A stretch of 64,000 nucleotides of DNA from positions 2,336,001 to 2,400,000 of the forward strand of contig OZ241329.1 of assembly GCA_965199825.1 (NCBI GenBank), written 5' to 3'. This stretch comes from Bdellovibrionales bacterium. GTDB taxonomy: Bacteria > Bdellovibrionota > Bdellovibrionia > Bdellovibrionales > UBA1609. The translations under genes and the position numbers were made by a program. Below the pieces are notes generated by a model. It was not told the origin of the DNA and searched no databases. It worked only from the letters and a program-made list of their open reading frames with translations. Shown one piece after another: positions 3,523 through 15,997 of this stretch (the first letter of the stretch is position 1; each line of letters opens with the position of its first letter).

Positions 3523-4176
3523 TTACCTTTCAAGAGATTTAAGAATCTCGATGACTGCTGGAGTATGGAGTTTTAAAATTTGATCAATCGCGAGGCCTCG
3601 TTCAATTTCATAAGTCAGCGTGGGCATCGCACGTTCAAGACCTGCATAAGTGCCAAGACATCCTGGTGTAGGGTATCCAATCGAATCGACAATAGGATAA
3701 CCGGTTAAACGATGAGCAATGTCAGCTTGAACTAAACAATCCCCATTTGTATTGAGGCAAGGTTTATAAGAATGCAAATTCAAAATAAACTTTTGCGGTG
3801 ACCGATCTAAAAACCGTACCAATGATTGATTTTCGATTTCAGAATTTTTAAATGGACCCGGAGGATACCGGGGGTTTTTAATTTCGGCCGACCAATCCTT
3901 GGTGGCAAGGTTGCGATTGAGATCAACTCCATTCGCATTGGTGCGGGTTTTGTTCAAAACCCCATCGAGATTAAATTCTGGGATGATGATTAAATGAAGT
4001 CGAAAACCAAAGTTGGAATCAAAAACTTGAAGAAGATGTTTAGCTAGAGCCACACCCTCGATTTCGTCACCATGAGTTCCGCCAAGAATCAAGACCGCAG
4101 GGCTGGTTTTTTGGCCAAATTCAAAACTCAAGATGGGAAGGCCTAAAGTTGTTTTACCGAATATAGAACTTTGCAT
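3523..4176 (-). CDS. M14-family zinc carboxypeptidase (MpaA-like / AstE-AspA-like); probable start ATG at 4176 rather than 4278
   Basis: GGTHGDE, N.DG....TR.NANGVDLNRN, NLHSY, GYPTPG.LG.Y, T.E motifs; the longer start overlaps lysC. Confidence 0.85.
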   Translation of the reverse strand: MQSSIFGKTTLGLPILSFEFGQKTSPAVLILGGTHGDEIEGVALAKHLLQVFDSNFGFRLHLIIIPEFNLDGVLNKTRTNANGVDLNRNLATKDWSAEIKNPRYPPGPFKNSEIENQSLVRFLDRSPQKFILNLHSYKPCLNTNGDCLVQADIAHRLTGYPIVDSIGYPTPGCLGTYAGLERAMPTLTYEIERGLAIDQILKLHTPAVIEILKSLER

Positions 4177-6615: not shown

Positions 6616-7964
6616 TGCTGATCAATCCTGCAACCGAAGACGTGATCGAAGAACTTGATTTTTTTTCGGATCAACAAGTGGAAACAATTCTTGATCGATC
6701 AACAAAGGGTTTCTCGAATTGGAAAAAGCTGAGCCATCGAGAACGCGGCGATTATTTTATCGAAGTCGCAAAATGTTTACGCAAATCAAAAGATGTTTTT
6801 GCCAATCAAATCACCACCGAGATGGGTAAAATCTTACCCGAATCTTTAGCCGAAATCGAAAAGTGTGCGGCTGCGTGTGAGTATTATGCTCGCAACAATT
6901 TAATGACCGATGTCGAAATTCAATCGAATTTTAAACAGAGCTTTGTGACCTACCAACCTCTTGGGCCTATACTTGGAATTTTGCCTTGGAATTTTCCATT
7001 CTGGCAATTTTTTAGATTTGCGATCCCCACCATGATGGCGGGCAACTCGGTAATTTTGAAAAGTGCGGCAAACACGATGGGGTGTGGGAATACGATTGCC
7101 AAAATTTTTAAAGATCTCCAATTTCCAGCCTCTGCTTTTGAGCTTCTTAATGTGGATGTTCCGATCCTTGCTCGAGTGATTGCCGATAAAAGAGTGCGGG
7201 GAGTGAGTCTTACCGGATCAACCCGAGCGGGCCGTGCGGTGGGCAAAGCGGCAGGTGAAGCCATCAAGCCTTGTGTTCTTGAACTTGGGGGAAGCGATGC
7301 TTACGTGGTGTTGGATGATGCCGATCTTGAGATGGCCGCACAAAAGATGATTCAAGGTCGATTTTTAAATTGTGGGCAGAGTTGTATTTCGGCCAAACGC
7401 TTTATTGTTACCCAGAAAAATTCGAGCGATCTCATTTCTATTTTGAAACATAAGATTTCAGGTTTAAAAGCGGGTTCGCCCCTCGGAAATAATGATATGG
7501 GCCCTATGGCAAGAAAAGATCTCCGCGATCAATTGAACACCCAGGTTGAACAGGCCAAAAAAGAAGGGCTTGAGGTTTTGGTGGGCGGAAAAATAAAACA
7601 ACAAAAGGGTTATTTTTTTGAACCCACTTTATTGTCTGGCACGGATCCAAACTCGATCGTATTTCAACAAGAATTGTTTGGCCCGGTGGCCTCCGTCACC
7701 ACTGCAAAAGATGAACAAGAGGCCTTAGCTTTCGCAAATCAATCTGATTTTGGTTTAGGTTCTGCGGTATTTTCTCGAGACATCGAGCGGGCAAAAAACC
7801 TAGCTCGAACACATTTTGAAGCCGGAATGTGTTTTGTGAATGATTTTGTTCGCTCAGAAATTCAACTTCCTTTTGGAGGTATAAAAGAATCTGGTATTGG
7901 ACGGGAACTCAGTCGCGATGGCCTCCATTCTTTTGTAAATATAAAAACTATATGTGTTTCTTAA
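6612..7964 (+). CDS. NAD(P)-dependent succinate-semialdehyde dehydrogenase (Sad/GabD-like aldehyde dehydrogenase)
   Basis: PWNFPFWQ, LTGSTRAG, LELGGSD, NCGQSCISAKR, ELFGP, PFGGIKESG.GREL. Confidence 0.9.
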   Translation: MMLINPATEDVIEELDFFSDQQVETILDRSTKGFSNWKKLSHRERGDYFIEVAKCLRKSKDVFANQITTEMGKILPESLAEIEKCAAACEYYARNNLMTDVEIQSNFKQSFVTYQPLGPILGILPWNFPFWQFFRFAIPTMMAGNSVILKSAANTMGCGNTIAKIFKDLQFPASAFELLNVDVPILARVIADKRVRGVSLTGSTRAGRAVGKAAGEAIKPCVLELGGSDAYVVLDDADLEMAAQKMIQGRFLNCGQSCISAKRFIVTQKNSSDLISILKHKISGLKAGSPLGNNDMGPMARKDLRDQLNTQVEQAKKEGLEVLVGGKIKQQKGYFFEPTLLSGTDPNSIVFQQELFGPVASVTTAKDEQEALAFANQSDFGLGSAVFSRDIERAKNLARTHFEAGMCFVNDFVRSEIQLPFGGIKESGIGRELSRDGLHSFVNIKTICVS

Positions 7965-8884
7965 TCTTAATTTGTTCAGTTTCACTTTTTGCCCAAACCA
8001 ATAACCAAACTTTAAAGGTTGAGGACCTTTTGCCGCCTTCCACCGAGGATGTGGTTGATGAAGTCTTGACCAATAAAAGACTTCGGGCCGAAACAGGCTC
8101 GCTTTCAAAATTTTCAATCAAGACATCTTTAGGTTACAGTGCGGGATCGATCGAAAAACCGCTTGATCCATTAAGACCCAACCTCACCGGCTCGAATGGA
8201 AATATGATGACGCTCCAGAGTGTCGCAGGAAGTGTGGGACTCAAATATCGCGCAAGCGCAATGGATTCGTTATTCGTAAATACCGGCCTTCGTATGCTCA
8301 CACCGTTTCAATCGCGCTATCAAACCTCTGATCCAAAACTCCAACAGGTTTTTGATCAAAATCATCAAAAAACAGATTTGTTTGATCCAAGTCTCAGTTA
8401 CACCCACATCTTTAAAATCTATGACGCCCAAAATACATTTTCGTTTGGCCAAACTTGGGTGACCAATTCTGTAGACCGAAGTTTTGGATATTTGACCTCT
8501 TCCAGTCTTTCGCACTCGATCGCTTATGAGCTAAGCCGTTCTACCTTTGGTCTTTCAACCGCGTTGAGCTTATCATTTTTTGACCAATCCAATATTGTGA
8601 TCAATCCGTATCAAACTCTTTATGACTTGGGATTTTTTCCATTTTATGAATTTGCATTCAGTGATCGGTACCAGTTGCGCACACTCTTAGGCTTTACTTT
8701 TGAGCATCCACGTTTCGGAGCTGCCACCTTTACACTTGTTCAAAGACGGGTGTATCAATCCTTGGGTCTGGGCATCTCGGTCACCAGAAATATTTATTTT
8801 TATCCCAACATTCAATTTTTGCCCGAGGATTTGCGTAGCGATAAAACAAATGTGGCGCTTCAAACAACATTTAGTCTCTTTTAA
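7952..8884 (+). CDS. Putative outer-membrane beta-barrel protein
   Basis: Signal peptide, alternating amphipathic strands, C-terminal Phe. Confidence 0.6.
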   Translation: MCFLILICSVSLFAQTNNQTLKVEDLLPPSTEDVVDEVLTNKRLRAETGSLSKFSIKTSLGYSAGSIEKPLDPLRPNLTGSNGNMMTLQSVAGSVGLKYRASAMDSLFVNTGLRMLTPFQSRYQTSDPKLQQVFDQNHQKTDLFDPSLSYTHIFKIYDAQNTFSFGQTWVTNSVDRSFGYLTSSSLSHSIAYELSRSTFGLSTALSLSFFDQSNIVINPYQTLYDLGFFPFYEFAFSDRYQLRTLLGFTFEHPRFGAATFTLVQRRVYQSLGLGISVTRNIYFYPNIQFLPEDLRSDKTNVALQTTFSLF

Positions 8885-8917: not shown

Positions 8918-9613
8918 TCATAAAAGCAAAATACGATAGGTACCCAAATTTTTTAGCTTAAACCTTACGGGCAGAGGATGTTGAAGAGTGGTCGACAAAA
9001 TTTTCGATTTGAAATCGGATTTGGACCATGCCCCTTTTGATTTTCCTTCTCTACTCGTCAATTTCACAATAGCGAACATGGGACGATCGTCTTTTGTAAC
9101 TGTCATTGCATTTTTGATGTGGCCAACGTCTAAATAAAATTGATCAAAGTTTTCTCTAATAGAAGCGATATCAACGATAGGTCCCACCTGCACAACAGCA
9201 GAAATATCAAAAAGGGATGGCTTCACAAAAACGAAGTACCCCGATATGTGAGTTTTGAGTACGGTTGTGCTGCTTTTAGCCAACCATTCAGGATTCAATA
9301 GGTAATTTTTAAATTGATTGAACGTGACGGATTCGAATTTAAAATCACCACCATAAGTTTTTATTAATTCGTTGAATCGTTCAAGCGACATTAAATATCC
9401 TTGGGGACTTGATTTTGGCCCTCGAATTTCAAAAATAATTTCACGATCTTCGATTGCGGAAAAAATTCTTTTTGTGTTGTTCAAAAACTGAAGAATCGAT
9501 GCGGCTTTAAGAGTACCAGGCTGAGCCCTGGTAAGTAGTGTTCGACACCCCATCAAAGGATCAGGTTCAAATTCTGCAAAAGCAAAAAGTCCGATAAACA
9601 AAAATAGAAGCAT
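8918..9613 (-). CDS. Putative secreted protein with four tandem Phd/YefM-like repeats
   Basis: Short signal peptide ending AFA; internal repeats resemble the Phd beta-alpha-beta-beta-alpha pattern (see findings). Confidence 0.6.
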   Translation of the reverse strand: MLLFLFIGLFAFAEFEPDPLMGCRTLLTRAQPGTLKAASILQFLNNTKRIFSAIEDREIIFEIRGPKSSPQGYLMSLERFNELIKTYGGDFKFESVTFNQFKNYLLNPEWLAKSSTTVLKTHISGYFVFVKPSLFDISAVVQVGPIVDIASIRENFDQFYLDVGHIKNAMTVTKDDRPMFAIVKLTSREGKSKGAWSKSDFKSKILSTTLQHPLPVRFKLKNLGTYRILLL

Positions 9614-9671
9614 ATGAACTTATGCCACAGAATTAAAAAATAGAAATAGAGATTTTTTTGAAGTTGTGCAT

Positions 9672-10346
9672 CTAAAGAAGTGGCTGAATATCAACCACAG
9701 TGCGCGAATCGATTTGTAACAACAAAGATTGTTTGAGCTTTAGGTATTTATAAATCAGTTCAGGTAATCTGACTTTTAATGCGTCGGTGTAAGAATATTT
9801 CCCAGCCACAGAATCCCCCTGGCTTTGATTGAGAGTCAATACCGCCGCATCCCGACCCTCGATTTGCAATATTAAGTAGATTTTTTCTGTTTGAATCCGA
9901 TTGGCCAAAACTAAAAAATGCTTCAGCAATTGAGTTAAACTGATTCGAGCAAAAGAAGACTGAATATCTTCGGGCAACAGGTAATCTGGATGCACAACTG
10001 CAAAAAGAAAGGTTTGGCCATTTTTTACGATCACCACCTTTGTTGGATCCCGAACAATCGGAATCGTTTCACCAATCTTAAATCCGCTTAAAGGTACGGT
10101 TTGAATCTGTGTGAATGGTTTCTGTAAGGCTTGAAAACGAGTAAAGGGCAATACAAAGGCAAATTCTCTACTTTCATGGATCAACTGATAAACTGTCTGA
10201 TCACCTGGAAGTCGTGCGCTCACCGCAACTGCATTTTTTTCGAAGTCTTCCATGCGGACTCGCATGCGGCGGGGAGTGTGCAGAGTCAATTCGATTTCAC
10301 ATTGGGCAAATGCCGCCTGACTGAGCAAAAATAAAATTATTATCAT
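9672..10346 (-). CDS. Putative secreted protein with four tandem Phd/YefM-like repeats (divergent paralog of 8918-9613)
   Basis: Signal peptide ending AFA, same length and repeat layout as its neighbour. Confidence 0.55.
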   Translation of the reverse strand: MIIILFLLSQAAFAQCEIELTLHTPRRMRVRMEDFEKNAVAVSARLPGDQTVYQLIHESREFAFVLPFTRFQALQKPFTQIQTVPLSGFKIGETIPIVRDPTKVVIVKNGQTFLFAVVHPDYLLPEDIQSSFARISLTQLLKHFLVLANRIQTEKIYLILQIEGRDAAVLTLNQSQGDSVAGKYSYTDALKVRLPELIYKYLKLKQSLLLQIDSRTVVDIQPLL

Positions 10347-10357
10347 GAGTGCGCCCT

Positions 10358-11161
10358 CTAGATATCAACGAGTTGTGGACCTGTGAAAGCATCAGTCTTT
10401 AATATAGAGCGCGCAAAACCTTCAAGCTGCAAAGAGAGATCTGTGGTCAAAATTTGGATTTCGCGATGTTTGTTTGCGGGAAAAATAAGCAATTTTTTAA
10501 AGGCTTGTAAAAGATCTTGAGCAACCGCTTCGCCAGATTGAACCAAAAAAACTTTCTCTCCCAAAACTTTTTTGAACTGATCTTTGAGCAAGGGATAATG
10601 AGTGCAGCCCAATATCAATGTGTCCATGCCAAAGCTTTTTAAAGGTTCAAGATAGCGAACTATAATCTGATCCGTAATCACATCATCGATCCAGTTTTGC
10701 TCAACCAGTGGAACAAGAAGAGGACAATCGACCTGGCGCACGAGAACATGTGGTGACAATTCAATTAGTTTTTGGGGATAGGCTCCTTTTCGAACAGTGG
10801 CTTGAGTGGCTACGATTCCAATTTTATTATTTTTTGTGTTTTGAATTGCGGCTCGTGACCCAGGCTCGATCACATTAAAAACAGGAACACCTTCGATAAA
10901 ATGGTCTTGCATGATCACAGAAGAAGCAGAGTTACAGGCAACCACCACCGCTTTGACATTTTGTTTTTTTAAAAATTTGATATTCTGTAAAACATATTTT
11001 GAAATCGTTGAACTCGACTTGTCGCCATAGGGGAGGCGAGCGGTATCGCCGAGATAAATAAAACTTTCCTCAGGGAACTGGGTCAAAAGATGAGCCAAGA
11101 CGGTAAGTCCACCGACACCAGAATCAAAAACCGCAATAGAGCGATTGTCGATTGAACTCAC
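10358..11161 (-). CDS. murI: Glutamate racemase (GTG start)
   Basis: FDSGVGGLTV, GDTARLPYG.K, VACNSAS, LGCTHYP. Confidence 0.97.
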   Translation of the reverse strand: MSSIDNRSIAVFDSGVGGLTVLAHLLTQFPEESFIYLGDTARLPYGDKSSSTISKYVLQNIKFLKKQNVKAVVVACNSASSVIMQDHFIEGVPVFNVIEPGSRAAIQNTKNNKIGIVATQATVRKGAYPQKLIELSPHVLVRQVDCPLLVPLVEQNWIDDVITDQIIVRYLEPLKSFGMDTLILGCTHYPLLKDQFKKVLGEKVFLVQSGEAVAQDLLQAFKKLLIFPANKHREIQILTTDLSLQLEGFARSILKTDAFTGPQLVDI

Positions 11162-12166: not shown

Positions 12167-14962
12167 ATGTCTATGAAGATCGATGTGAAAATTAAAGCGG
12201 CTCGTTTTGTTTTAGCCACCACACTGGGCTTTTACATGCTCACTATCTATAACTCGTGTTCTAAAGTGAGCTTTGCACCCAGCGGTGTAAGCGCACTTAC
12301 GGCCCAGGGCGGAGTTGCAGCGGTTTTGATAAACAACGGAGCACCTTACACCAATCAAGTGGGTGTGACCCTCACTCTGAATAGTCCCGGTGCCTCAGAA
12401 ATGTATGTGACCAATGATCCAAGTTGCAAAACTGGTGGAAACTGGCAGCCCTACATCGTGAGCCTTCCTTGGACTTTACCTGACAGCAACAAACAAAATA
12501 GTGTGTTTGCACAATTTCGCAATATGAGTTCTTTATCACCATGCTCACAAGCCTCGATTGTTCATGACAATATCGCACCCCTTGGGACCTTTAACAATTT
12601 CGCCGATTATACAAACCAAAATCATTTAGAAGTGCCAATTGCTGCACAAGATTCTGGATCGGGAATTGCCTCAGTAGTATGTACCGAAGTGAATACTGGC
12701 TTTACTCAAGATTGCCAAAATGGTTTTGCGATTCAAAATTTGAGCGAAGGCCCATATCACCTTTCGGTTTTGGCTCGCGACCACGCAGGCAATGTATCGA
12801 TTCCCCAAGAGCAATCTTGGACAGTTGATATAACCGCTCCTGTGGTGACTATAGTCACTGGCCCATCGCTCATTACCAATCAAACTCAAGCCGTATTTGT
12901 GATTAATGCTTCAGACAATTTTTCGCCAGCCCAAAATATTAAACTTTCTTGTAAGGTCGATGGCGGATCATTTCAACCTTGTACGACAACTCCGTCTTTT
13001 GCAGTATCCCAAGGCCCACACACATTATCGGTGATTGCGACTGATCTTGCCCAAAACACCTCAACACCAATTGTTTATAAATGGTCGGTGGACATCACCG
13101 TACTTAACGTGACTCTGACAAAAGTTCCGAGCCCAGTGAGTGGAGATTTAAAACAAGTATTTGGATTTCAAGGCTCTCCTCAAGTTGTAACTTTCTTGTG
13201 TCAGTTAGATTCAGGCGCACAAAGTGTGTGCGTCTCACCGCTCAACTATGGCCGATTGCCTGACGGTCCACATACGTTTAAAGTGACGGGTCAAAATCAA
13301 GCCGGCGACCAATCGCAACCCACCACTTACAGTTGGATTGTTGATACCACTCCGCCTGTTGTTTCGATTTCTTCTCAGCCTCCAGCAAGCACAAATAATC
13401 CAAATGGAACCGTGATTTTTAATGTGACCGACCAAAATCCATCGGGCTCGGCAATTTGCGTAGTCGATCAACAAGCGGCGCAAAATTGTGTGAATTCAAT
13501 TGTTCTTCAGACACTTCCTGAAGGACCTCACCAGGTCACAATCACAACCGTAGATCAAGGCGGAAACAGTTCTACACCTGTCACTGCACAGTGGACGATT
13601 GATCTGACTCCACCTGTCGTCACCATCGTCTCTGGCCCTGATAAAATCACTCAATCACAAAGCGCACCGTTCATATTGAATGCAACGGATGCGAACGGCG
13701 GAAAAGTTTCTCAAATTCAATGTAAGCTCGATTCTCAAGCCACATTTTCGAGTTGTACTTTGACTCCACAATTTTCAAATCTTTCGAATGGCAATCACAC
13801 CTTTTCGGTAAAGGGTGTGGATCAAGCGGGCAATATCTCAGCACAGGTCGATTACCCTTGGACCGTGAGTACCAATGGTCCAAGCATTACTTTTCAACAA
13901 CAGCCTCAAGATCCGAGTTCAGTTTCATCGCCAGCAGTTGTGCAGTACTCGGTGAGCGATACGGTATTTCCTGGAAGTGCATTAACAATCACATGCGGAT
14001 TTAATGGCCAAGTTACAAGCTGTGCAGATCAGGCGACTCTCAGTCACGACCAAACTTTAGGAACTCAAACCTTTACGGTAAATGCGAAAAATCCTGCGGG
14101 CCTGACCTCAACACAAACCATCACTTGGACTGCGAAAAGCATTTTGCAATTTCCATCTCTCTCAAATCTTGCGGCAATTGCATTTGAAGATAATTTTCCA
14201 AGCGTCGGTGATGCCGATTACAATGATTTTTTGACCAACTTTAAAATCACTGAAGCAATCAATACTCAAAACCAGATTACCCAAATCACCATCGATTTTT
14301 ATCCTCGAGCGGTCGGCGCAGGCTTCGATCATTCATTAATCTTGGTGCTTGATGGTGTTAAAGATTCGCCATCCAATATCACCAAACAAACCACACCGCT
14401 GTTCAATGGTGATGCCTCTATCGTGCTAATGAAATACGATGGATCAGGAAATCTGAAATCCAAACAGAATTATTCAAAAGGGCAAGATGTTGTGGTTTTT
14501 CAAAGTACCCATGATGCGTTTGGAGATTCGGGACAAGTGAATACCAATCCCGGCGCACCCTACATTGCCCCTTTGTCATTGGCGCGAGTCCAAATCACAC
14601 TTCACAATCCAGAACAAAATGCGGTTGCAAGCAACAGTATTGACACAAGTAAATTTCGAGTCATTTTACATGTGAGTAATACCAATAAAGATATCGATAT
14701 CATCGACGTCGATCCTTCAAACTTTGACAGTAATGGATATCCTTTTGGATTTATTATTCCTTCGGATTGGCAGTGGCCGGTTGAAGGTAAAGCAATCGAC
14801 AACAGCTATCCAAATTTTGCGGCTTACAGAAAATTCTTAGTCGATAAAAATTCAGATCCAACTGTGACGGCTCCGCCGAGCGTGTTGAATTGGTTCTTGT
14901 CGCCGGTGCCGAATGATCCTTCGTTGTATCCGCGGGTGCAAGCTCCCACGAAACTCCCCTAA
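12167..14962 (+). CDS. Large surface protein: tandem Ig-like repeats plus C-terminal LruC (DUF4842) domain
   Basis: Repeated W.VD.T.P.V.I units with paired Cys and L..G.HT..V.A.D.AGN; C-terminal AFEDNFP..GD.DYNDF and G.PFG.IIP.DWQWP.EG..I...YP.F; YNSC signal. Confidence 0.8.
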   Translation: MSMKIDVKIKAARFVLATTLGFYMLTIYNSCSKVSFAPSGVSALTAQGGVAAVLINNGAPYTNQVGVTLTLNSPGASEMYVTNDPSCKTGGNWQPYIVSLPWTLPDSNKQNSVFAQFRNMSSLSPCSQASIVHDNIAPLGTFNNFADYTNQNHLEVPIAAQDSGSGIASVVCTEVNTGFTQDCQNGFAIQNLSEGPYHLSVLARDHAGNVSIPQEQSWTVDITAPVVTIVTGPSLITNQTQAVFVINASDNFSPAQNIKLSCKVDGGSFQPCTTTPSFAVSQGPHTLSVIATDLAQNTSTPIVYKWSVDITVLNVTLTKVPSPVSGDLKQVFGFQGSPQVVTFLCQLDSGAQSVCVSPLNYGRLPDGPHTFKVTGQNQAGDQSQPTTYSWIVDTTPPVVSISSQPPASTNNPNGTVIFNVTDQNPSGSAICVVDQQAAQNCVNSIVLQTLPEGPHQVTITTVDQGGNSSTPVTAQWTIDLTPPVVTIVSGPDKITQSQSAPFILNATDANGGKVSQIQCKLDSQATFSSCTLTPQFSNLSNGNHTFSVKGVDQAGNISAQVDYPWTVSTNGPSITFQQQPQDPSSVSSPAVVQYSVSDTVFPGSALTITCGFNGQVTSCADQATLSHDQTLGTQTFTVNAKNPAGLTSTQTITWTAKSILQFPSLSNLAAIAFEDNFPSVGDADYNDFLTNFKITEAINTQNQITQITIDFYPRAVGAGFDHSLILVLDGVKDSPSNITKQTTPLFNGDASIVLMKYDGSGNLKSKQNYSKGQDVVVFQSTHDAFGDSGQVNTNPGAPYIAPLSLARVQITLHNPEQNAVASNSIDTSKFRVILHVSNTNKDIDIIDVDPSNFDSNGYPFGFIIPSDWQWPVEGKAIDNSYPNFAAYRKFLVDKNSDPTVTAPPSVLNWFLSPVPNDPSLYPRVQAPTKLP

Positions 14963-15997
14963 AGCTGGCCCCTTTAATTGTTTGTGGCTAAGGGTTTGCT
15001 CTACTAATTTGTAATGAATCAGAGAACAGATCCAGTTTGCGAATGTGAAAAACAATCCGGTAAAGACCGGATGCGCATTCGCAAAGCCGGATTTTTCTTT
15101 CGCCGATCTGATCACAAAAAGATTCAGCGCTACTGTTGTTTGACATGCCAAAAGACCTTTTCAACTGCCACTCGCGAAGTTTGCTATCGTCAAAATAAAC
15201 GACACCTTAATATTCCAATTTTTCATAAATTGTGCGGAGGATTTTCTAAACGAAGAACTGCGCTTGTCTTAAGGATCAATCGAAAAACCGTGATCCGGAA
15301 ATTTCGATTTCTCGCGAATCTTTCTTTTGATTTTTTAGATCAACAAATTCAAGAGCAATACGTCGCTGAGGTGCAGTTTGATGATATGGAAACTTTTGAA
15401 CATACTAAGTGTAAACCAATTTCGATTACTCTCGCTGTTGATAAAAAAACCAGACGTATTCTTGGAGCGGAGTGTAGTCAGATGGCTGCTAAAGGCTTAT
15501 TAGCCAAAAAAGCTCGGATCAAGTACGGTTATCGGAAAGATGAAAGGTCGAGTGGTCGCGAAAGGCTTTTCATAAAAATCAAAAACTTGGTTCGAAAAGA
15601 CTGCGTCTTTCACTCCGATCAAAACCCTCATTACGCTCCGGATATTAGAAAGCATTTTAAGTATCACGAACATAAAACTTTTAAGGGCAAAAGGGGCTGC
15701 GTTGTAGGCAAGGTGAACTGAAAAGTGGTGGGTATGATCCGCTCTTTACCCTCAATCACACGTCCGCGATGATTCGTGATAATTTAAAGAGAATGTCGCG
15801 AAAAACCTGGTGTACCACAAAGAAAATCGAAGAGTTAAATAACCATCTCGCGATTTACACGGTTTATCACAACGAATTTTTAATAAAACCTACGAAACCA
15901 CATGATGTATTTTCTGATTTAGTTGGTCTTCAAGAATAATTCTTCATAGTCCTAAATATGGGGCTGCTCAAAAAAACAATTAAAGGGGCCAGCTTTA
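14960..15997. mobile_element. Insertion sequence (IS1/IS1595-related), about 1.04 kb
   Basis: Perfect 24-bp terminal inverted repeats TAAAGCTGGCCCCTTTAATTGTTT (14960-14983) and its reverse complement (15974-15997) flanking a transposase. Confidence 0.9.
15014..15939 (+). pseudogene. IS1-like transposase with a frameshift near 15709
   Basis: Zn ribbon C.C...QRYCCLTCQKTF, FDDMETF, HSD..PHY; stops at 15721 but the -1 frame continues QGELKSGGYDPLFTLNHTSAMIRDNLKRMSRKTWCTTKK...LQE* to TAA 15937-15939. Confidence 0.85.

Follow-up and report, generated by a model that had tools for sequence, protein, structure and literature searches.

The window, the whole stretch of 64,000 nucleotides of Bdellovibrionales DNA that was analysed, contains two open reading frames on the minus strand, P0001 (ORF 8918-9613, 231 aa) and P0002 (ORF 9672-10346, 224 aa), which lie downstream of murI in the transcription order murI, P0002, P0001. 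A preliminary description of this DNA had claimed two tandem frames of 231 and 224 aa, and both are present with these coordinates and lengths. The features of the locus, with the evidence for each in brackets, are the following.

7952-8884, plus strand: convergent gene, product likely an outer-membrane beta-barrel (reading of the sequence; no family match).
8918-9613, minus strand: P0001, signal-like peptide, Cys tag and four Phd/YefM-like units (profile, alignment, model).
8921-9040, minus strand: P0001 unit 4, residues 192-231, the weakest-supported of P0001 (positional profile 92%).
9044-9187, minus strand: P0001 unit 3, residues 143-190, full helix 1, stops after beta3 (profile 95%, model, tiling).
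9200-9340, minus strand: P0001 unit 2, residues 92-138, helix 1 shortened (block pLDDT 67-85, tiling; profile weak, 4%).
9353-9514, minus strand: P0001 unit 1, residues 34-87, beta-alpha-beta-beta-alpha, superposes on Phd/YefM (model, tiling).
9533-9547, minus strand: P0001 C-x3-L tag after the signal, C23, the sole Cys (sequence).
9575-9613, minus strand: P0001 predicted Sec signal peptide, residues 1-13, ends AFA, no K/R (sequence; own heuristic).
9672-10346, minus strand: P0002, layout as P0001 (profile, alignment, codon use).
9675-9809, minus strand: P0002 unit 4, residues 180-224 (tiling, weak, -7.3).
9813-9956, minus strand: P0002 unit 3, residues 131-178 (tiling score 10.2).
9972-10109, minus strand: P0002 unit 2, residues 80-125, helix 1 mostly deleted (alignment, tiling).
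10119-10271, minus strand: P0002 unit 1, residues 26-76 (tiling).
10287-10301, minus strand: P0002 C-x3-L tag, C16, the sole Cys (sequence).
10305-10346, minus strand: P0002 predicted Sec signal peptide, residues 1-14, ends AFA (sequence; own heuristic).
10358-11161, minus strand: murI, glutamate racemase, upstream flank (family match).

The in-frame codon use of both frames is gene-like (0.039 for P0001 and 0.098 for P0002, against -0.14 to -0.37 in the remaining five frames), with the P0001 score falling below the 5th percentile (0.048) for genes of similar size. The genome measures 2.84 Mb and is 100% complete. Its release factor 3 shares 53-72% identity with records labelled Bdellovibrionota (64% or more in 18 of these rows) and no more than 54% with other records among the best 80 loci, which places the genome in the Bdellovibrionales. 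One sequencing run, which may be the source of the sequence, spans the P0001/P0002 stretch without differences, and a second sample of the same study carries identical letters in the listed pieces of this region; no RNA data were listed as carrying the stretch. The start of P0002 lies 11 bp past the murI stop and is preceded by a ribosome-binding-like site (AGAGGG), and the two genes are probably co-transcribed, with murI itself outside the module. P0001, which lacks a clear ribosome-binding site, might be leaderless. Beyond murI, the plus strand of the window encodes a protein of 931 aa that has Ig-like repeats and, at its C-terminus, a DUF4842 domain (12167-14962) and a 235-aa ORF without significant Pfam match (15014-15721), presumably related to an IS transposase judging by its motifs.

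The barrel-like family, which is present in 55 of the 108 family genomes, has just two paralogs in this genome (window 7952-8884 and L037:4204-5157), each within about 0.5 kb of a gene for a Phd-repeat protein. No tandem Phd protein was found beside a barrel-like gene in the loci of 29 relatives. In 20 of the 29 murI loci of relatives, murI has within 1.5 kb a gene of the block that lies to the left here (aldehyde dehydrogenase, lysA or the gene at 3523), so that the barrel gene and the P0001/P0002 pair resemble an insertion specific to this lineage. Most of these relatives (L246-L274) also have a gene of about 350 aa ahead of murI that is missing at that place here; it is similar to C1:2416425, a CBS-bearing protein that we take to be IMPDH-like.

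Phd/YefM domains are small cytoplasmic homodimers encoded beside a toxin. Tandem HMMs (x2 and x4) were built from 30 classical Phd/YefM proteins, with no member of the present family in training, and run against 8537 ORFs; they placed P0001 at rank 3 (E 0.006-0.007) and P0002 at rank 7 (E 0.06-0.1), with 14.1 and 11.3 bits against a best of 8.0 bits in the reversed database. With a single-unit HMM, P0001 ranked 8th and P0002 23rd among the same 8537. Tiling of the whole profile recovered three of four units in P0001 and all four in P0002, at the positions that the preliminary description had given, although only 3 of the 7 tiled units scored above the best of 15 shuffles. Unit 4 of P0001 was recovered by neither tiling nor the structure model.

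Four further Phd-repeat proteins with the same layout, P0003 to P0006, are encoded elsewhere in the genome. P0003 (C1:1520386, 317 aa, six units) emerged from a genome scan with PF02604 below its cut-off, and P0004 (C1:1586486, 227 aa), P0005 (C1:39395, 222 aa) and P0006 (C1:2142002, 731 aa) from the single-unit HMM, for which 30 classical Phd sequences from the phylum were used. The number of units is 4, 4, 4, 4 and, in P0003, 6. The large P0006 (C1:2142002-2144197, minus strand; L038:3003-5198) combines a signal-like leader and C-x3-L tag with an N-terminal domain, a helical C-terminal part and several Phd-like units among other domains, the best at 205-258. Upstream of their starts, P0001 (window 9617-9625, minus strand) and P0006 have TGGCATAAG in common. 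Together the six proteins occupy six of the top seven places in the tandem HMM search, a ranking that is circular for P0003-P0006 and not for P0001 and P0002. A signal-like leader and an early Cys open all six, and neither feature was used in their selection. Two other candidates were judged chance matches: a 253-aa signal-like protein with an early Cys (C1:399055-399816, minus strand), whose D...IELK motif recalls, in our view, PD-(D/E)XK nucleases, and L001, presumably a SurA/PpiC-like protein from its motifs.

In an unguided alignment of five mature proteins the units fall roughly in register, and the Cys and one Pro are invariant. Profile-profile comparison of the quarters of the unguided family alignment with Phd gave 79, 4, 95 and 92%; taken protein by protein, the units gave 16% in P0001 and 70% in P0002. 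The eight units of the window aligned jointly reached 11.9 against Phd, a value exceeded by the best of 40 controls (13.6), and a unit-versus-unit test for internal repeats found no significant mutual likeness (E of at least 0.024). P0001 and P0002 have no match in Pfam, NCBIfam or PDB sequences and no similarity to each other by BLASTP. The curated PF02604 cut-off of 29.8 bits is reached by none of these proteins, with no match for P0001 and P0002 and 18.1 and 14.7 bits for paralogs; in a search of the complete set of 24,736 Pfam families, P0003 matched PF02604 best (E 0.0023) and P0004 matched PF02604 (E 0.026) and no other family.

The single-sequence model of P0001 had a pLDDT of 36.8 and no Foldseek match. 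An AlphaFold model made with a five-member alignment that contained no Phd sequence reached a pLDDT of 62.9, with units 1-2 at 65-85 and modelled confidently together, unit 3 at 54-62 and unit 4 as a helix only. Foldseek returned nothing at E <= 0.001 for this model; the toxin-antitoxin chains 8yxv_G and 6l8e_L were matched with probabilities of 0.97 (rmsd 1.8, 53 columns) and 0.82. In a comparison with 48,161 chains, the top 11 rows were all antitoxin entries (Z 7.0-4.3, covering unit 1 only), such as 7bwf_B (Z 7.0, rmsd 3.2 over 61), 6jqy_A (Z 6.0, 1.9 over 44) and 2odk_A (Z 5.7, 1.4 over 51). These rows comprise Phd, YefM, prevent-host-death, VapB46 and mycobacterial RelB/RelJ antitoxins, the last of which we take to be of Phd/YefM type; the next unrelated row stands at Z 3.9. 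Because Z values under 8 may come from an arrangement that is simply common, the structural weight for P0001 lies in one family filling the top of the list and in the agreeing sequence tests. In the ESM Atlas, P0001 gave a RegA-like lead of 0.78, below threshold, and P0002 nothing. The comparison of structure models proposed in the preliminary description therefore supported a Phd/YefM fold for unit 1 of P0001, whereas the accompanying repeat check gave no significant likeness between units. The N-terminal fold of Phd/YefM is thus indicated for P0001 unit 1 by model and profile and for the remaining units by profile. The tandem Phd/YefM-like architecture first proposed for the two proteins is supported by their ranks in the tandem HMM search, by the profiles and by the unit 1 model, and it is highly probable that P0001 and P0002 consist of Phd-derived tandem domains.

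Relatives beyond this genome were sought at several scales. Against 5.8 billion sequences, P0001 and P0002 singly returned self-matches only, and the five-member alignment A1 returned three of its own five members; against 1.84 billion representatives, A1 found its own five members and two unrelated helical-repeat proteins. Among 100 relatives, P0001 had one match, in a frame that is interrupted by a stop and lacks a matching gene, and P0002 none; A1 was found in none of 300 genomes of the class and P0006 in none of 300 genomes of the order. Among 66 rows of weak PF02604 matches in relatives, 20 places were examined, namely all 16 whose open frame spans at least 200 aa and 4 shorter ones, and none encodes a tandem protein; no Phd-repeat relative occurred among 398 ORFs in 58 loci with murI and barrel genes. 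A1 has no conserved stretch usable for contig scans. Members held out of the family profile ranked 2419, 967, 80, 103 and 15 against the profile of the rest, and members thus fail to recover each other, so these blanks reflect low power and do not imply absence. For the same reason, a single origin of the six proteins may be considered with reserve; a quick tree of 22 units and 30 Phd domains was unresolved, with long branches. The spread in Bdellovibrionota that the preliminary description wished to see examined therefore amounts to six proteins in this genome and no relative found in others by searches of low power; so far, the tandem Phd architecture with a predicted export signal is found in one genome. 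A single depth-3 contig of a related strain, in which residue-altering changes make up 4 of the 5 listed in P0001 unit 3 against 1 of 4 in murI, hints at fast evolution of that unit and is too thin to count on.

Both proteins begin with signal-like leaders (P0001 MLLFLFIGLFAFA, P0002 MIIILFLLSQAAFA). A leader was called by our own heuristic (hydrophobic core and A-x-A site), and a tag was defined as a Cys within 12 mature residues with L/I/F/M at +4. P0001, P0002, P0005 and P0006 pass for leader and tag; P0004 has leader and Cys without the +4 residue, and the motif of P0003, missed by the leader heuristic, was seen by eye. The P0001 signal cannot be much longer than predicted, because its open frame (233 aa) extends only two codons upstream. 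The short signal ending AFA and the early Cys noticed at the outset were accordingly confirmed as signal-like leaders by this heuristic, followed by C23 in P0001 and C16 in P0002 as the sole Cys of each. By the same heuristic 550 of 2485 genes (about 22%) encode signal-like proteins. A Cys lies within the first 12 mature residues in 154 of the 550, compared with 8.6% of windows elsewhere, and after removal of lipobox-like cases L/I/F/M occupies the position four residues past the Cys in 54 of 110, compared with 288 of 1361 for other Cys. The genome thereby holds 54 signal-like proteins with C-x3-[LIFM] just past the predicted cleavage site, many with this as their sole Cys and most without a Pfam family.

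A Pfam scan covered 40 of the 50 tagged proteins outside the Phd-repeat family, excluding four Cys-rich or atypical and the six shortest. No match was obtained for 29 of the 40; the 11 matches, two of them envelope-type, were DnaJ, GNAT, MaoC/thioesterase, AIM24, two OmpR-type winged helices, EEP, M14 peptidase, Omp85 and two weak ones. Six of the 11 matched domains are presumably cytoplasm-acting, and such domains in the tagged class would fit delivery into another cell. The DnaJ (C1:592580, L075), AIM24 (C1:1085678, L092), MaoC/thioesterase (C1:2742502, L087) and GNAT (C1:1916839, L079) folds found among the tagged proteins normally act in the cytoplasm. Two adjacent genes (L094/L095, C1:1217176-1218801, minus strand) each combine leader, Cys tag and an OmpR-type winged helix (PF00486, E 2e-9 and 3e-15), and their products are candidate exported DNA-binding proteins. 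Judging from leader and tag, export of P0001 and P0002 is predicted with good confidence. Signal-peptide DNases of Bdellovibrio are secreted into the bdelloplast, according to excerpts of PMC7925074. No description of the Cys tag was found in the literature on Bdellovibrio effectors, mostly open-access and judged from listings.

The signal-like leader and the length of 224-231 aa argue against a small cytoplasmic antitoxin. Across our alignment of the family, helix 1 tends to be short in units 1-2, where the helix after it is kept; units 3-4 have a full helix 1 and end after beta3. The toxin-binding tail is absent from every unit, the linkers between units being short and the last unit ending at beta3. 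The claim that no toxin lies next to the pair was borne out, since the neighbours are murI and the barrel-like gene; the genome as a whole has no PF02604 match above the cut-off and no ParE, Fic or PIN domain (PF05016, PF02661, PF01850) at E <= 0.01. P0001 and P0002 resemble the DNA-binding half of Phd/YefM and are not members of the group as antitoxins, lacking the tail and a toxin and scoring below the cut-off.

In Staphylococcus aureus YefM, as described in excerpts of PMC7544224, the N-domain dimer forms a six-stranded sheet and Arg10 reads bases; on DNA, four N-domains make up two DNA-binding units in adjacent major grooves, with a toxin-bridged avidity of about 47-fold. A K/R in the helix-1 column inferred to be equivalent to Arg10 is present in 29 of 30 Phd domains against 9 of 22 units of the family, and is kept in three of four units of P0001 and one of four in P0002. 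The predicted pI of the mature proteins is 9.6 for P0001 and 9.2 for P0002 (8.6-9.6 across the four-unit members; 6.8 for P0003 and 7.8 for P0006). From these counts and pI values, DNA binding is plausible for P0001 and doubtful for P0002, and recognition of a classical operator is unlikely.

The best explanation of these observations, offered tentatively and with a little less than even confidence, is that P0001 and P0002 are Sec-exported chains of four Phd/YefM-like domains, folded as two pseudo-dimers, whose target would be prey DNA and which would need no toxin as a bridge. Pairing within the chain is probable, given the even unit numbers and the confident joint modelling of units 1-2. The units would pair 1+2 and 3+4 to give two single-chain pseudo-dimers, and the proteins, once cleaved, would exit the presumed predator together with other Cys-tagged cargo. 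Joined in one chain, the two heads could supply the avidity that natural YefM gets only when a toxin bridges two dimers, and by occupying prey DNA free of toxin they might damp prey transcription, with low-specificity binding likelier than recognition of a single operator. A four-unit chain would have the stoichiometry of YefM on DNA (four N-domains, two units; excerpts of PMC7544224) built in, and the tagged class holds other cytoplasm-type cargo, including the two OmpR-type winged-helix proteins. Against a DNA-binding role stand the shortened helix 1 in several of the units 1-2, the restriction of the structural match to P0001 unit 1 at Z below 8, and the lack of basic character in P0003 and P0006. 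A more specific form, in which exported toxin-independent 'super-repressors' clamp toxin-antitoxin or stress operons of the prey by copying the four-domain YefM-DNA complex, so that a defence regulator would have become a transcriptional weapon, is unlikely.

An alternative, less probable and still worth serious attention, is that the Phd fold serves as a small stable repeat scaffold for an extracytoplasmic protein or ligand, or for a non-DNA target in the prey, DNA binding having been lost. The loss of the helix-1 K/R from 13 of the 22 units, the deleted or short helix 1 in several of them, the low identity of members to P0001 (12-16%), the proportion of residue-altering changes in the low-depth contig of the related strain and the position of both barrel paralogs next to family genes would all suit such a scaffold; the basic four-unit members, a layout equal to the stoichiometry of DNA-bound YefM (excerpts of PMC7544224) and the other DNA-binding folds in the tag class would not. 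Sabotage of prey toxin-antitoxin systems by contact appears improbable: unpaired units would join prey Phd/YefM as tail-less heterodimers and free the toxin, or act as decoys. Phd N-domains are indeed a dimerisation module (excerpts of PMC4803016 and PMC7544224), and the poorly formed unit 4 in the P0001 model possibly leaves unit 3 open for a partner. However, with an even number of units each domain would have a partner in its own chain, units 1-2 were modelled confidently together, the units are distant from classical Phd in sequence (long branches), and the missing toxin-binding tails make protein contact a less likely way to interfere with toxin-antitoxin complexes.

There is also only a slender chance that P0001 and P0002 fail to be exported, or remain with the producing cell, as regulators that are either cytoplasmic or tethered to the membrane by an uncleaved N-terminus. 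The cytoplasm is the usual place of DNA-binding domains, and the leaders, called by our own heuristic, have 13-14 residues and no K/R; however, equally short K/R-free leaders occur in 128 of the 550 signal-like proteins of the genome, the hydrophobic core is too short for a membrane span, and the Cys follows the leader closely in all six proteins, as in a large class of exported type. The last alternative, tandem CBS-domain (Bateman) nucleotide-binding proteins, has the same beta-alpha-beta-beta-alpha order, likewise paired domains and the majority of E-value-ranked Foldseek rows (best E 0.0076) in its favour, but was rejected as barely credible on poor superposition (rmsd 11-19 A and probability <= 0.38 in the Foldseek rows; best CBS row Z 3.0), on tandem CBS profiles (29 domains; the six proteins rank 203-2445 or are absent, the five true CBS proteins of the genome come first, and the profile match is <= 0.7%) and on a PF00571 scan without a match on the six proteins at E <= 10.

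To return to the preferred reading of exported chains acting on prey DNA, no published example was found of Phd domains used in this way, repeated within one chain, tail-less and preceded by a predicted export signal, as they are in six proteins of this genome; the literature covered, mostly open-access and judged from listings, contained no tandem, exported or orphan pseudo-dimer Phd/YefM protein. To our knowledge, toxin-antitoxin-derived effectors derive from toxins, and none from antitoxins. If the reading is true, P0001 and P0002 would be natural single-chain forms of the avidity switch that underlies conditional cooperativity. One published speculation has Bdellovibrio possibly repressing a stress regulon of its prey through a mechanism described as unknown (excerpts of PMC2859166), and proteins that reached prey DNA would offer a handle on that idea.

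Among known systems, the closest in fold is Phd/YefM itself (PF02604; PDB 7bwf, 6l8e, 3hs2, 2a6q, 2odk, 6jqy), with which the units share the beta1-alpha1-beta2-beta3(-alpha2) dimerisation and DNA-binding domain, and the four domains of each P0001 or P0002 chain equal in number the four DNA-bound YefM N-domains in 6L8E. Unlike Phd/YefM, the present proteins carry four to six or more copies per chain and a predicted export signal with a Cys tag, are without a C-terminal toxin-binding tail or a toxin gene, fall below the Pfam cut-off and have often lost the basic residue of helix 1. CBS/Bateman pairs (PF00571) are alike in the order of secondary structure and in their tandem pairs, and differ by the lack of a sequence signal and by poor superposition. 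Signal-peptide DNases of Bdellovibrio, Bd0934 and Bd3507, are directed against prey DNA and released into the bdelloplast (excerpts of PMC7925074); they are hydrolases, whereas P0001 and P0002 have no recognisable catalytic domain, and the likeness carries no claim of homology. By analogy, Bartonella offers the closest precedent, having recruited toxins of toxin-antitoxin modules as effectors; there VbhT and the Beps (excerpts of PMC5675462) also join a toxin-antitoxin part to an export signal to form an effector for another cell. In Bartonella, however, that part is a FIC toxin sent through a type IV system by a C-terminal BID signal, whereas in P0001 and P0002 an antitoxin domain is multiplied behind a leader of Sec type.
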